DNA of 64,000 nucleotides from a virus. Lineage: Duplodnaviria; Caudoviricetes. A model generated the notes under the pieces. That model was not told the origin of the DNA, searched no databases, and saw only the letters and a program-made list of their open reading frames with translations. The translations under genes and the position numbers were made by a program. Below, in pieces: positions 6,578-11,503 of this stretch (its first letter is position 1; every line of letters begins with the position of its first letter). The DNA lies in the IMG/VR virus record IMGVR_UViG_3300032234_000388, positions 134,724-198,723 of that record; one strand, given 5' to 3'.

Positions 6578-6973
6578 TTAAACGATCGGAGTTAGAACAA
6601 TAATGTCTGCTGACGAATCGTTTTCTAAACGCCATGTGTACTTAACACCATCGAAGTCTGTAGCAACACGTTTGGTAATTTTAGCAATAAACTTGAGATT
6701 GTTTACACCATTACCGCCAACATAACCAACTAGGCTCATTTCACCTGCAGCGTCTGGTGCAGTTGACTGTAGTACCGCTGTTGTATAATTAGCTGTAGTG
6801 CCGATGTCTTCAACTCGTGCAACAACAAAAGTTTTTGCTCCACGTTGTTTGATAATAACACCATCTGTTCTTAGTGCAGAATCATAAAAATCAACTCTTA
6901 CACCCGTGGCTGCGTCTACACCGGTTCCGATAACATCAGTACCGAACACATCTTTTTTTAATGGACGTCCCAT
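6578..6973 (-). CDS. MGRPL-family virion protein (short paralogue)
   Basis: 131 aa; shares MGRPL..FG and IIKQRG.K.F with 7054..8172; AAGGAG RBS. Confidence 0.7.
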   Translation of the reverse strand: MGRPLKKDVFGTDVIGTGVDAATGVRVDFYDSALRTDGVIIKQRGAKTFVVARVEDIGTTANYTTAVLQSTAPDAAGEMSLVGYVGGNGVNNLKFIAKITKRVATDFDGVKYTWRLENDSSADIIVLTPIV

Positions 6974-6992
6974 TTTGTTTCTCCTTTAATTT

Positions 6993-7026
6993 GACGTTCT
7001 AGGTCTACGGGGATGGTTACCCCATA
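6993..7026 (-). promoter_or_regulatory. Structured 5' leader motif, copy 1
   Basis: UAUGGGG-UAACCAU-CCCCGUA followed by GAC-CUAGAAC-GUC, between late promoter 7051-7058 and the RBS. Confidence 0.7.
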
Positions 7027-7050
7027 AGTCCGGACCTATGTCGGACATTG

Positions 7051-7058
7051 TATTTAGT
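7051..7058 (-). promoter_or_regulatory. T4-type late promoter (ACTAAATA)
   Basis: TAAATA overlapping the upstream stop codon, ahead of the leader of 6578..6973. Confidence 0.55.
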
Positions 7059-8172
7059 AACCTCTAGTTGCTGAATTGTGTGCAACTGTAAACTGTGTTG
7101 CTCCGGTACCTAAACCGTATAGTGTACCGTTTACGCTGTTGTTTGCGCCAAGTTGCATCTTTTCTGCGCCGGCCCATTCCTGGAACCAAATACGTACTGG
7201 ATACCACTTATTTGCTTCAACTGTTACACCGTTAGTACCATCGCGAGCATTACCTGATTGTGCAAATAGATAGTTATTATTTGCTGGGTTTAGTGCAGGG
7301 GCTCCAATCCATACTACAACATCATCATCTACTGTAGCAAAGAACCGCATATTACCTGTTACAGGTGCTTGGATATAACCCTTCCACTCGAGAGCATAGT
7401 TGTTTTCTGCGTCTAAGTCGGTTCGTAAACCAAAACCTACATAAGTATCAACTTCTAGAGCATCTGTTGATATTGGGCCGTTAGCAGGAACAAAGAAGTT
7501 CATGTTTAGACCTGAGCCAAAACCAACTTCGTCAATATAATCTTCTGAGAAGTTACCGACATACTTTTGACGAATTAATCCGTTTGTAGTGTTTGTAACA
7601 CTAGTTAAACCGCTGGCTGTAATATCGCGGAATGTAATACCTGTTGCGTTATAAGCATCGATATAACCACTTGCGCCAACAAATGTACCCGGTACGTTAC
7701 TGTTGCTACCACCAGAACCTGCTAATGGCTCATCTGGATCCATACCTGGAGGAATTGTTGGGCCTTCGTCACCTTCTAAATCTGTAGCACTTGTTAAGCT
7801 AGTATCTGTTCCAGCTTCTTCAACTTGCCAGTATCCGTCTATGGTGCTAGTGCTGAAATTCCATTGTGAGTTAGTATTTGTGCCGCTAACAGAAATACCA
7901 ATTCTGTGAGCTGCGATCTTTGTGGCTTGGTTAACTGTGTCATCGTCAAATTTAAATGTAACCGTCATTTCTCCTGCTGCTAGATCTGCAGAGGCTTTGT
8001 CTACCATTCTACATAATGCAGTATTACCGTCTGCATCTTTACATAAAAATCTCTTAGAGCCTTTTTGTTTTACAATATAGCCTTTAACACTAGCTGTACC
8101 GTTATGAAATTGTACTTTAATATTGTTGTCAGCATTTGCGCCAAACAGTCGTTTATTTAATGGGCGTCCCAT
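7054..8172 (-). CDS. MGRPL-family virion protein with C-terminal PA14-like domain (putative capsid decoration/adhesin)
   Basis: 372 aa; YALEWKGYIQAPVTGNMRFFATVDDDVVVWIG...WYPVRIWFQEWAG matches the PA14/GLEYA pattern; lies just downstream of the MCP gene. Confidence 0.7.
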   Translation of the reverse strand: MGRPLNKRLFGANADNNIKVQFHNGTASVKGYIVKQKGSKRFLCKDADGNTALCRMVDKASADLAAGEMTVTFKFDDDTVNQATKIAAHRIGISVSGTNTNSQWNFSTSTIDGYWQVEEAGTDTSLTSATDLEGDEGPTIPPGMDPDEPLAGSGGSNSNVPGTFVGASGYIDAYNATGITFRDITASGLTSVTNTTNGLIRQKYVGNFSEDYIDEVGFGSGLNMNFFVPANGPISTDALEVDTYVGFGLRTDLDAENNYALEWKGYIQAPVTGNMRFFATVDDDVVVWIGAPALNPANNNYLFAQSGNARDGTNGVTVEANKWYPVRIWFQEWAGAEKMQLGANNSVNGTLYGLGTGATQFTVAHNSATRGY

Positions 8173-8186
8173 TTGTTTCTCCTTGT

Positions 8187-8219
8187 AGCGTTCTAGGCCT
8201 ACGCGGTGGGTGCCGCATA
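8187..8219 (-). promoter_or_regulatory. Structured 5' leader motif, copy 2
   Basis: UAUGCGG-CACCCA-CCGCGUA followed by GGC-CUAGAAC-GCU; compensatory changes relative to copy 1. Confidence 0.7.
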
Positions 8220-8236
8220 AATCATTCTAGATACTT

Positions 8237-8244
8237 TATTTATC
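8237..8244 (-). promoter_or_regulatory. T4-type late promoter (GATAAATA)
   Basis: TAAATA overlapping the stop of the upstream ORF, ahead of leader copy 2. Confidence 0.6.
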
Positions 8245-8509
8245 TACTACTTAGCAAAGCCATAAGCTCAATTTTTTCAACTGTGGCAATAACTTGATTA
8301 ATTGTGTCTATTTCTTTTTGTGCTTCTTCTAAATATCGGTTTCTGTGAGTTTGTCTATACTGAATTAGTATTTGACTGTGCCGTTTAATATGTTCTTCAA
8401 CAATACGTTCTATGCTGTTTACATCATGAACAAACATAGGAAATCGCTTGCGCCACTCACTAAATTGTACCCGTAGTTTAGAAAAATCTTTATCGTTTTC
8501 AATATGCAT
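8240..8509 (-). CDS. Hypothetical protein
   Basis: The ORF-track TTG start (8530) lies inside the terminator; ATG 8509 (MHIENDK...) sits 5 nt after TAAATA (8515-8520). Confidence 0.6.
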   Translation of the reverse strand: MHIENDKDFSKLRVQFSEWRKRFPMFVHDVNSIERIVEEHIKRHSQILIQYRQTHRNRYLEEAQKEIDTINQVIATVEKIELMALLSSR

Positions 8510-8524
8510 ACGGATATTTAAGTC

Positions 8525-8553
8525 AAACAAAAAGGCTCCGAAGAGCCTTTTTG
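8525..8553 (-). terminator. Rho-independent terminator after the major capsid gene
   Basis: AAAAAGGCTC-TTCG-GAGCCTTTTT: cUUCGg tetraloop plus U tract, potentially bidirectional. Confidence 0.9.
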
Positions 8554-8577: not shown

Positions 8578-9744
8578 TTAAGCAAAACGTAGGTTAGCGG
8601 ATGTTACAGCAACAGTCGCTAAGTAATCAGCTGCGTTACCTAGAGAAGAAGCTGTGTTTGTCAACTCAACATAACCATAACGTGTCATGAATGATACGAC
8701 TGGTTCGAAAGTTGCTGGGTCAAGAACAACACCACTGCTCATCAATGGAATGTATGGGCAATAGAATGCTGCTGCGTCAGACTCAGAAGATCCTTTGTAG
8801 CCAACTAGAACGTTGTCGTTCTCAGCGTATGTGTTAACATAAACTTTCATTGCGCTATTCAATGTACCAACAAACTTAGTGTTTGTAGGAGCTTCAAATG
8901 TACCTTCTGTTGTACGAGCAAATGCGCTTGTAGTAGCAGACTGTAGTAGTGTCAATGTAGTTGGGGAAACAACAGCCCAATTACCTGCACCACGACGTGT
9001 ACGCTGAGCGATCAAGTTAGCAGCACGGTTGATTTGAACAGCCAATGCAGCGTGCTCATCACCAACGAATGTAGCTGTACCAGATACAGCAGCTTGGTCG
9101 TATGTTAATACTGTTGAGCTCAATGTAGCCAAGCTACGTAGAACTTCTTGGTCGATCTCAGCTGTAATTTCTTGTGCAAGAGCAGCCATGATCTCTGCTT
9201 CGATGTCAATACCTTGTTGGGCTTGTGCATCTTGAGCAGCTTCAAATGTCCAGCGAGCTGACAATTTACGTGTCTTAGCTTCAACTGTTTGTTTCAAGAT
9301 TTGAATGCTTAGTTTGTTACCTGCTACACCTTCTAGTGCGGCTGTTGAAGCAGCTTTACCAGTTGTAGCACCAGCATAACCTTCAGCAATCTTGAATGGG
9401 CTTAGAGCCTCATCACCAGCAACAGTATTACCGCCAGTACCGATAAATGTATCGCTGTAGCGAACACGTAGAGTATGGATCTGTCCGACTGGACCTGTCA
9501 TTGGTTGTACACCAACTAGTTCATTAGCAATGACTGTTGGCATTACACGTCTGATCACTGGAAGGATCACACGATTTAGGGTTGCAACGTTACCGGCGGA
9601 AGTTGCACCAGCAGTGGCACTTTCTGACAAATACTTGCGGGTATTTTCTAGAGTTGTTGCCATTACGGTACGCTTGTTACCTTGAAGACCTTCTAAAAGG
9701 GCGTCTTTGGTTTCCGACCAGCGTGACTCGAGTAGTTGTGACAT
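8578..9744 (-). CDS. gp23: Major capsid protein (T4 gp23-like)
   Basis: VIRRVMPTVIANELVGVQPMTGPVGQI, KQTVEAKTRKLSARWT.E.AQD, AAFYCPYIPL and DPATFEPVVSFMTRYG motifs. Confidence 0.95.
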   Translation of the reverse strand: MSQLLESRWSETKDALLEGLQGNKRTVMATTLENTRKYLSESATAGATSAGNVATLNRVILPVIRRVMPTVIANELVGVQPMTGPVGQIHTLRVRYSDTFIGTGGNTVAGDEALSPFKIAEGYAGATTGKAASTAALEGVAGNKLSIQILKQTVEAKTRKLSARWTFEAAQDAQAQQGIDIEAEIMAALAQEITAEIDQEVLRSLATLSSTVLTYDQAAVSGTATFVGDEHAALAVQINRAANLIAQRTRRGAGNWAVVSPTTLTLLQSATTSAFARTTEGTFEAPTNTKFVGTLNSAMKVYVNTYAENDNVLVGYKGSSESDAAAFYCPYIPLMSSGVVLDPATFEPVVSFMTRYGYVELTNTASSLGNAADYLATVAVTSANLRFA

Positions 9745-9754
9745 ATAGTTCTCC

Positions 9755-10855
9755 TTAAACTTTTAGTCCCGCAAGCCTGCGGATGTCAAATATCTCAGCG
9801 GTCTTTTCCTCACCACTGATTGGTTGTGCCTGTGCTTTGTCGCCTGTAATTTCTTTGCCTTCTGTTAATGCTTGTGATTTTTTGACTGGAGTTCCGCCAT
9901 TCATTACTGCTGGTAGATACTTGTCATAAGCTACACGTAGCTTTTCAGTTTGTACTGATTCTAATAGCTCGCCCATAACTGCACGCTTATCGCCACCTAA
10001 AGGACCTAACAATTCGCTCATAACTTCCTTGCGAGATGCACTATCTTTGGCAATGCGTAATTCAGCTTCTTTGCTTTCTACTAGTTTTTGTGTTTCTGCA
10101 ACAATCTTTGCTGCTTCTTCTAATTCAGCTTGCTTCTCAGCAACTGCTTTTAGAAGTTTGCTTGTCTCTGACTTTTCGTTCAGGTGACTTGCAGCATATT
10201 CGCTTGCGAATGATTCAAAAATTCTACGACCAAAGTCATTCTTGCGAGCATGTTCAATGTCCTCTTTCAACTGAGTCATTTCAGATTTTAGTCCTTTTGC
10301 AACTGTTTCTTCAATGATTTGTGCTGAGCGAGCAATAAAATCTTTCTTAACAGCTTCAAACTTAGCTTTGCTTTCACGTACTAAACGTACTTTAGTTTCA
10401 GCTAGGTCTTTTTTGTCGCTGTGGAATTCTGCGATTTCTTTCGCTAGTGCATCCACAATAAAAGATTCTAATTTTGCAACATTACCTGCAACTGCTTTAC
10501 GATCTTCGTGTAGTTCTGCTAATTCCTTTTTAAGGTTTTGTAGAACAAATGATTCCATTGTTTTGGAGTCATCTTTCATTTTCTTTGCATACTTGGCACG
10601 AGCTTCAATTAGTCCTTGACGATCTTCTGCAAGCTCGCCTAGTTCTGCTTGTAGGCGATCTGTTAGCATGGCTTCAACAGCCTCTACCATAGCACCTTTA
10701 TCATGCTCATACTTTTGTGCAAATTCTTCACGTAGTTCAGCAGTAACTTGTTCGCGGTTTTCTTGAATTTTGCCATTCCATGACGATTCAATTTCCGATT
10801 TAATTTCTTCGGAAATCACATTGTTCTCAAACAGTTGTTTTACGATATCTAGCAT
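9755..10855 (-). CDS. gp22: Prohead core scaffold protein (gp22-like)
   Basis: 366 aa coiled coil with a GRRIFESF motif, between protease and MCP. Confidence 0.8.
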   Translation of the reverse strand: MLDIVKQLFENNVISEEIKSEIESSWNGKIQENREQVTAELREEFAQKYEHDKGAMVEAVEAMLTDRLQAELGELAEDRQGLIEARAKYAKKMKDDSKTMESFVLQNLKKELAELHEDRKAVAGNVAKLESFIVDALAKEIAEFHSDKKDLAETKVRLVRESKAKFEAVKKDFIARSAQIIEETVAKGLKSEMTQLKEDIEHARKNDFGRRIFESFASEYAASHLNEKSETSKLLKAVAEKQAELEEAAKIVAETQKLVESKEAELRIAKDSASRKEVMSELLGPLGGDKRAVMGELLESVQTEKLRVAYDKYLPAVMNGGTPVKKSQALTEGKEITGDKAQAQPISGEEKTAEIFDIRRLAGLKV

Positions 10856-10870
10856 GTGATTCTCCTACTG

Positions 10871-11503
10871 TTATTTGAGTCCTGAAATTATTTTTTTCAG
10901 ACTCTCTGCTAAGTATTTCTGTGCCTGTGGGTCGCCTTTGACTTCTTGTGCTATTCTAAATGCCTGATATCCACCTGTATTATTCATCAAGTGTTCATAA
11001 ACTGGTGTTGGGTATGCTCCCGGAGCGGAAGGTTGTGCTACTACGTCAACAGTGATAATTTCAAAGCCTTGAACATTACCTTGTCCATCAACTTCGCCTG
11101 AGCCTCTACTACTAACACCCAACTTAACTCCCGACTCTAACATGGTCTGTACTAGCTGACCCATTGGAGTTGGGAGTAATTTTAATTTTCCGTAGCCGTT
11201 AGGACCATCCATCCACATCTTGGTAATCATATGACTAACACGATCTAGATTGATTCTTAAATCCTGTGGGTGATCGACTTCACCTAGCACGGAGTAACCG
11301 CCAGCGATCTGCTCATTGAGCGTCTTGACAGCCCTGCCAATTTCTTGAGAAGAATAAACACGTTGGTTTGCATTACGGATGTCGCCTTGAATGCAAATAC
11401 CGTTTAGATGCAAGGACTTCTTACCGTCCTTGCCTTCTTCGCTCTCCAGAACAATCTTAGCCTGGTCGTAACTCAAATGTTCTGCTAGTGTAAGTTTATT
11501 CAC
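10871..11503 (-). CDS. gp21: Prohead protease (gp21-like)
   Basis: GICIQGDIRNANQRVY, LGEVDHP, GVSSRGSG and DVVAQPSAPGA motifs. Confidence 0.93.
   Translation of the reverse strand: MNKLTLAEHLSYDQAKIVLESEEGKDGKKSLHLNGICIQGDIRNANQRVYSSQEIGRAVKTLNEQIAGGYSVLGEVDHPQDLRINLDRVSHMITKMWMDGPNGYGKLKLLPTPMGQLVQTMLESGVKLGVSSRGSGEVDGQGNVQGFEIITVDVVAQPSAPGAYPTPVYEHLMNNTGGYQAFRIAQEVKGDPQAQKYLAESLKKIISGLK

Follow-up and report, generated by a model that had tools for sequence, protein, structure and literature searches.

The 64 kb window analysed here (the whole stretch of DNA, positions 134,724 to 198,723 of IMG/VR record IMGVR_UViG_3300032234_000388) comes from an uncultured jumbo T4-like phage, whose record, a genome fragment, spans 198.7 kb with a CheckV completeness of 56%. 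On its minus strand lie two adjacent paralogous genes of a family named here MGRP, after the first residues of most of its products: one encodes a protein of 131 amino acids (6578..6973) and the other a protein of 372 amino acids (7054..8172), both starting with MGRPL. Each gene is preceded by a structured leader, delimited by cmscan at 6971..7045 for the shorter gene (copy 1, of full length, with hairpins P1, P2 and P3, a Shine–Dalgarno (SD) sequence and the AUG) and at 8170..8236 for the longer gene (copy 2, in which P1 is absent), and both leaders almost certainly belong to freshwater-2, an RNA family catalogued in Rfam.

In copy 1, P1 (7028..7046) is formed by GUCCG and CGGAC, which make 5 bp around a 9 nt loop; P2 (7006..7026) pairs UAUGGGG with CCCCGUA around the loop UAACCAU, P3 (6993..7005) pairs GAC with GUC around the loop CUAGAAC, and the SD sequence AAGGAG (6986-6981), an A-rich spacer, the AUG (6973-6971) and the GG of codon 2 follow within 6969..6986, all on the minus strand. 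Copy 2, on the same strand, begins with P2 (8200..8219; UAUGCGG, loop CACCCA, CCGCGUA) and continues with P3 (8187..8199; GGC, loop CUAGAAC, GCU, with one G-U pair) and its own AAGGAG (8184-8179). Each copy is thus built of a 7 bp hairpin with a U-G pair, directly followed by a 3 bp hairpin with a CUAGAAC loop, and the 15 nt core CGTAGRCCTAGAACG occurs at only these two sites in the window. An earlier note on this DNA had described the same two hairpins as stems 1 and 2, which correspond to P2 and P3 of the freshwater-2 model, at 7026-6993 and 8219-8187; the sequences were confirmed, together with the differences between the copies (G-C to C-G in P2; A-U to G-C and G-C to G-U in P3), the TAAATA motifs (7056-7051 and 8242-8237) and AAGGAG motifs that flank both copies, and the complementarity of each P2 loop to the start of its gene, which matches CCAU (7016-7013) to AUGG (6973-6970) in copy 1 and CCCA (8210-8207) to UGGG (8171-8168) in copy 2. 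The P1 hairpin of copy 1 (7046-7028) and its absence from copy 2 had not been part of that description. The AUG contained in P2 (UUAUG) was considered as an upstream open reading frame (ORF) and set aside: it has no SD sequence, it lies within a helix, and in copy 1 it yields no more than AUG-GGG-UAA.

The earlier note had been unable to place these leaders in a known family. That statement, and with it the claim of novelty, does not hold, since both copies match Rfam RF02980, freshwater-2 (type Cis-reg), a family that already exists. Scanning the window against Rfam 15 returned two matches above threshold, to RF02980 and RF01718. Copy 1 covers positions 1-84 of the RF02980 model and scores 56.8 bits, where the gathering score is 49.9; copy 2, recovered with relaxed thresholds, matches the model end to end with 40.8 bits, which is under the gathering score, and with an E-value of 2.2e-4 or 6.8e-6 in two scans, its lower score being due to the absence of P1. 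These are the only two matches to the family in the whole 198.7 kb record. The model consists of the three hairpins P1, P2 and P3, followed by the SD sequence and the AUG. The conserved UUAUGC...GCGUA of P2 and, after it, P3 with its CUAGAAC loop are found in both copies, and in both genes AAGGAGAAA..AUG falls on model positions 68-84. The 5 bp P1 is found in copy 1 and not in copy 2, whose promoter sits 17 nt before P2. Freshwater-2 was put forward as a candidate cis-regulatory motif in a comparative screen, the main text of which does not mention it (Weinberg et al., 2017; PMC5737381). A full-text literature search for 'freshwater-2' retrieved no relevant paper. According to the Rfam and Wikipedia text, the motif reportedly derives from freshwater and other aquatic metagenomes, with no known organism and with unannotated downstream genes. 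The family is hence already catalogued, and what appears to be added here, relative to the main text of the screen and to the Rfam and Wikipedia text, is its context and a pseudoknot.

Relatives of the two leaders were collected from IMG/VR with a pattern fixing only TTATG, CGTA and CTAGAAC, for which at least 119 stretches were listed; about 113 of the 119 listed are true members, each continuing with AAGGAG and ATGGG or ATGGC. Three further scans were added, bringing the distinct leaders parsed from IMG/VR to 147, of which 142 entered the MAFFT alignment used for covariation. The same pattern has at least 120 matches in bacterial and archaeal genomes; the 120 listed are all due to chance, and none of them has an SD sequence and AUGG in the right context. 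Across the aligned leaders P2 is paired in 99.7% and P3 in 96.7% of cases, values that were reached in none of 500 shuffles, and controls in which the pairing was slid were 29-39% paired. The covariation on which the earlier note had made its proposal depend was looked for and found: six pairs change on both sides, namely all four P3 pairs and the two P2 pairs that the search pattern leaves unconstrained, one of which is GC in 79 leaders, AU in 42 and UA in 17. The parts that do not vary are the base of P2 (UAUG/CGUA) and the P3 loop (CUAGAAC). The structure is assigned to RNA on the minus strand because the invariant U-G pair of P2 and the G-U pairs of P3 would mismatch on the other strand. 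The proposal that a structured cis-acting leader precedes both MGRPL genes is borne out by its conservation and covariation across the relatives.

Two readings that would dispense with a functional RNA structure are hard to reconcile with this record. The conserved block could instead act as DNA, whether within the late promoter or in terminating transcription of the gene upstream, and its place immediately behind a promoter-type motif and the upstream gene's stop codon would suit such a role; yet only minus-strand RNA can accommodate the invariant U-G pair, the G-U pairs and the A-to-G changes opposite U, neither P2 nor P3 is followed by a T run, TAAATA stands at anything from 12 to 36 nt from P2, and the loop covaries with coding sequence, all of which make this reading highly improbable. 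The adjacency of two paralogous genes would likewise be expected if the leaders were a functionless remnant of a recent gene duplication, but the architecture is kept in more than 140 leaders, in front of proteins down to 13-30% identity, and the 16-base pattern is almost always true among the matches listed from viral contigs and never (0 of 120 listed) in bacterial and archaeal genomes; the chance that this explanation holds is next to negligible.

The leaders would start a few nucleotides after a promoter-type motif. The late promoter of phage T4 is TATAAATA, with TAAATA as its core. A TAAATA of this type precedes copy 1 (7051..7056, minus strand), sharing bases with the TAA stop codon that ends the 372-residue gene, and the late-promoter-type motif GATAAATA precedes copy 2 (8237..8244, minus strand), overlapping the TAA stop codon of a 96-residue ORF and leaving only about 10 nt of RNA ahead of P2. 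Of 119 relatives, 117 carry TAAATA at a distance of 12-36 nt ahead of P2, where by analogy with T4 it would serve as late promoter. No T4-type late-promoter motif is reported in the paper on Pseudomonas phage PA5oct. In the window ATAAATA is rare, with 10 occurrences against 25 ± 4 expected, a scarcity consistent with selection against stray late-promoter motifs. The spacing between promoter and P2 goes together with the presence of P1: a P1 of at least 4 bp is found in 104 of 106 relatives with a spacing above 20 nt, and where the spacing is shorter P1 is absent (34 of 140 leaders, copy 2 among them). The P1 of copy 1 is probably the 5'-terminal hairpin of a late transcript, and freshwater-2 would make up the entire 5' leader of a unit transcribed late, with P1 as an optional part. 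An intrinsic-terminator-like hairpin with an 11 bp stem and a T run (8528..8553, minus strand) lies just after the gene for the major capsid protein gp23, and the MGRP genes would therefore need promoters of their own. This hairpin overlaps the TTG-start region of the 96-residue ORF (8240-8530), the true start of which may be further downstream.

The P2 loop tracks the start of the gene that it precedes. In nearly all leaders of genes starting with AUGGG, the loop ends on its 3' side in CCCA or CCCG, in UCCA or in CCA, all complementary to positions +2 or +3 to +5. Patterns placing no constraint on the loop yielded 36 distinct leaders of genes starting with AUGGC, most of which carry a G opposite +5 (GCCA, GCCG, GCUA or AGCA); in the AAAUCCAA subfamily two pairs have changed, from UCC/GGA to AGC/GCU. 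Swapping the +5 base weakened the best loop-to-start helix in 94 GGG-class cases and strengthened it in 2; for the GGC class the counts were 20 weakened and 9 strengthened. Over the 142 leaders, the pair opposite +5 (columns 18:84) is CG in 98, GC in 16, UG in 2 and another combination in 26, the pair opposite +4 (columns 19:83) is CG in 136, and the pair opposite +2 (columns 22:81) is AU in 97 and GU in 27. A complete census of IMG/VR for P2 loops ending in GCC[AG] found AUGGC starts in 18 of 21 true leaders, against a base rate of 4 in 113 among the matches listed in the scan that was conditioned on neither loop nor start. At least four AUGGG subfamilies contain nested AUGGC genes, whose nearest AUGGG neighbours are 45-80% identical, and the nested leaders differ from those of their neighbours in the sequences of P1, P2 and P3. 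The pairing bases always occupy the 3' end of the loop, beside the 3' arm of P2, as expected of an H-type pseudoknot that stacks on P2. The pairing between loop and start codon that the earlier note had read from the two copies is thus backed by compensatory changes in the relatives, and the comparison argues strongly that it is genuine.

The order of elements in these leaders, from TAAATA through a few nucleotides, the optional P1, P2 with its UAUG/CGUA base and P3 with its CUAGAAC loop to the strong SD sequence AAGGAG and the AUG of an MGRP gene, suggests how such a pairing might be used. The 3' side of the P2 loop (CCC with A or G) would form base pairs with the last base of the AUG and with positions 1 and 2 of codon 2, and in many cases also with the U of the AUG. 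The ensuing H-type pseudoknot would stack on P2 and occlude the start codon, with the SD sequence in its long connecting loop; in copy 1, the proposed 3' strand of this candidate pseudoknot is the region 6969..6986 on the minus strand. The pseudoknotted form would be expected to block initiation by the 30S subunit. A sequence-specific trans-acting factor is postulated because structure alone would not call for invariance at UAUG/CGUA and CUAGAAC; such a factor would read the base of P2 and the loop of P3 and set the balance between the two forms. The element would then be a translational operator, tuning the output of a virion protein late in infection. As a whole, this explanation of freshwater-2 as a late leader with a start-occluding pseudoknot acting as a translational operator is judged, from comparison of sequences, to be the probable one, and for the proposition that the control acts on translation the chances are about even.

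Part of the same evidence could be accommodated by a passive structured 5' untranslated region, whose hairpins, chiefly the 5'-terminal P1, would protect a very highly expressed late mRNA from 5'-end-dependent decay, or which would present the strong SD sequence in open, A-rich surroundings, with neither a switch nor a factor. P1 stands at the predicted 5' end with its sequence free to vary and its pairing kept, AAGGAG with a 7-8 nt A-rich spacer is near optimal, and a late promoter precedes the leader. However, P1 is dispensable, 34 leaders including copy 2 being devoid of it; mRNA stabilization would call neither for invariance at UAUG/CGUA and CUAGAAC nor for a loop that follows the start sequence; and other late genes, such as that for gp23, are without the element, of which this genome has only two copies. 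A merely passive role is for these reasons considered unlikely. Were the trans-acting component a metabolite or a signalling nucleotide that bound the P2/P3 core and shifted the pseudoknot, the leader would be a small pseudoknotted riboswitch, as its compact two-hairpin core with invariant nucleotides, the placement of the pseudoknot 3' strand in the initiation region, as in the preQ1-II and SAM-II expression platforms, and its Rfam type Cis-reg might lead one to think. The association with a single virion-type gene family rather than with metabolic or transport genes, the fact that no ligand suggests itself and the location of the invariant bases in a hairpin loop and a helix end, not in a multi-helix junction, leave a riboswitch very unlikely.

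Two further features of the leaders were observed. Of 140 leaders, 99 contain, either in the 5' segment or in the linker that joins P3 to the SD sequence, a complement of at least 4 nt to the P3 loop (GUUC, UUCU, UCUA or CUAG); shuffles give 46 ± 5, and only 2 of 200 permuted loops reach the observed count, a figure inflated by kinship. In the minimum-energy fold of copy 2, the 5' UCUAG (8231-8227) pairs with CUAGA of the P3 loop, and leaders lacking P1 (window 8225-8231/8190-8196 and loci L009, L026, L048, L065 and L080) carry a 5' UCUAG(AA) or GUUC that complements CUAGAAC; such complements between 5' end and P3 loop may form a second tertiary contact or an alternative fold. Subfamilies with long linkers have a conserved AUCGGACUUCU (AU[CU]GG[AG]CUUCU) just before the SD sequence (loci L005, L010, L021, L038, L043, L047, L049, L060, L063, L076 and others). 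The CUUCU of this linker could pair with AGGAG, as an anti-SD sequence, or with AGAA of the P3 loop, which would make a switch that is absent from the copies in the window.

The genes downstream of freshwater-2 form one family. In the first parsed set, 109 of 123 downstream proteins start with MGRP, the others with MA.. or MGNA, and their lengths of 115-512 residues reflect a common N-terminal domain of about 120 residues with variable C-terminal additions. The 131-residue protein of the window falls in no Pfam or PHROG family; the 372-residue protein joins an N-terminal MGRP domain to a C-terminal PA14/GLEYA domain (GLEYA 1.5e-11, PA14 2.2e-8, residues ~239-341), a carbohydrate-binding type of domain that suggests a surface-exposed, adhesin-like module on the virion. 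The AlphaFold2 model of the 131-residue protein is all-beta, with a mean predicted local distance difference test score of 82.7. A Foldseek search of this model against the PDB gave no match at E <= 0.001, VIA-align indicated a weak, generic SH3/Tudor-like barrel (Z 5.0, root-mean-square deviation 2.1-2.5 over 47-52 residues), the matches in BFVD were to uncharacterized phage proteins only, including one of Agrobacterium phage Atu_ph07, and the ESM Atlas gave no usable match. Among solved decoration proteins, these PDB comparisons brought up none with a matching fold.

A tblastn search of GenBank phages with the 131-residue protein gave no match, and blastn with the leader returned short spurious matches only. 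A hidden Markov model built from 56 short members detected exactly two genes in this genome, both bearing the leader, and also gp102 of PA5oct (E 3.4e-12) and a gene of Sinorhizobium phage Phosso (E 1.5e-21). The PA5oct protein, which begins MGRPIKSDWFG, is annotated 'structural protein; ESI-MS/MS'. Both homologues have an MGRP start after TAAATA and a short leader without freshwater-2, and the RF02980 model found no credible match in the Phosso and PA5oct genomes, where it scored 20 bits at best. Since these cultured homologues keep MGRP without the element, the MGRP N-terminus is maintained for reasons at the protein level, and freshwater-2 is an addition in an uncultured clade. In the leader of Phosso gene 429 (locus L338 3161-3205, minus strand), CCCAU complements the AUGGG start of that gene; the leader region of PA5oct gp102 is at locus L337 2350-2400. 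A function of the MGRP product in capsid decoration is plausible, given the mass-spectrometry annotation in PA5oct, the location after gp23 and the PA14/GLEYA paralogue.

That leaders and MGRP genes match one to one raises the possibility that the factor is the MGRP protein itself, acting autogenously, although on present evidence this is rather doubtful. Unassembled MGRP protein, as a virion accessory protein, would bind the invariant base of P2 and loop of P3 in its own late mRNA and lock the pseudoknot, so that synthesis would follow the supply of capsid sites, with one copy of the leader per paralogue and a loop co-evolving with codon 2; this full scheme is to be regarded as unlikely.

Several observations weigh against the explanation as a translational operator, or against parts of it. 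The strict pairing of leader and gene for each paralogue would fit feedback by the product but can also be explained by a co-inherited cassette, and the element is not required for the MGRP gene family, as PA5oct and Phosso illustrate. Folded singly, the window copies gave z values of -0.9 to -2.1, not better than shuffles; the two copies on their own would be weak evidence, not exceeding chance, and the case rests on the 140-odd homologues. On the protein tree the +5 state changes 12 times, mostly on unsupported branches, and with only two independent contrasts on supported branches a sign test is powerless. About one third of the AUGGC leaders are uncompensated, for example those with GUCCA and AAAUCCAA loops; conversely, three AUGGG leaders (L354, L361 and L419, with products starting MGRAL...) have GCCA loops, and in four or five AUGGG leaders the loop lacks CC. 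The pseudoknot helix has only 3-5 bp, and the transcription start site of the leader is itself inferred only. The lineage in which L354, L361 and L419 sit is otherwise AUGGC (MARAL...), and the three look like uncompensated intermediates or reversions.

The proposed operator has partial counterparts among known translational controls. In rpsO of Escherichia coli, which encodes ribosomal protein S15, a hairpin loop forms a pseudoknot with the initiation site that the gene's own product stabilizes, repressing initiation. The outline is alike in that a loop pairs at the initiation site; there is, however, no relation in sequence, and rpsO controls a ribosomal protein. The leader of T4 gene 32 likewise contains a pseudoknot at the 5' end of a T4-type phage message and mediates translational feedback, in which the pool of free protein signals saturation of its normal ligand; that pseudoknot sits at a great distance upstream, as the nucleation point for cooperative binding over a stretch without structure, whereas the one considered here would cover the start codon, and the gene 32 product binds DNA, while the product here is a virion protein. 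In the leaders of T4 soc, e and I-TevI, a hairpin hides the ribosome-binding site in early read-through transcripts and the late promoter starts transcription inside the hairpin. These genes, too, have TATAAATA-type late promoters just in front of them, but their late transcripts are open, in contrast to the present leaders, in which all hairpins lie downstream of the promoter and within the late transcript.

The MGRP genes of the window follow a T4-type block of head genes, comprising the prohead protease (10871-11503), the scaffold protein (9755-10855) and the Gp23 major capsid protein (8578-9744; Pfam Gp23, 2e-99). The closest capsid proteins of cultured phages are those of Phosso (72% identity) and Vibrio phage 2.275.O (69%), followed by Cronobacter phage GAP32 (67%) and PA5oct (66%), all four being jumbo myoviruses. 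Among the relatives, gp23 lies upstream on the same strand in all 94 loci in which it was detectable, often with a gap of only 73-124 nt. Elsewhere in the window, 19970-20106 on the minus strand matches positions 1-141 of Rfam RF01718, Polynucleobacter-1 RNA, with 94.7 bits against a gathering score of 37; this is a known family, here borne by a phage, and is a hint only of a freshwater or aquatic origin.

Freshwater-2, one among many orphan motifs known only as an alignment of metagenomic sequences, thereby gains a carrier, a transcriptional setting, a family of target genes and a structural mechanism. The carriers are uncultured jumbo phages, whose capsid protein shares 66-72% identity with its counterparts in Phosso, PA5oct and GAP32; the setting is the 5' leader of a late transcript beside gp23; the targets are MGRP virion proteins; and the proposed mechanism is a pseudoknot that covers the start codon and tracks codon 2. 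The motif becomes directly testable with a 90 nt RNA, a reporter fusion and one purified protein of 131 residues. If the feedback loop were true, it would be a rare instance of translational control of a phage structural protein through RNA structure.

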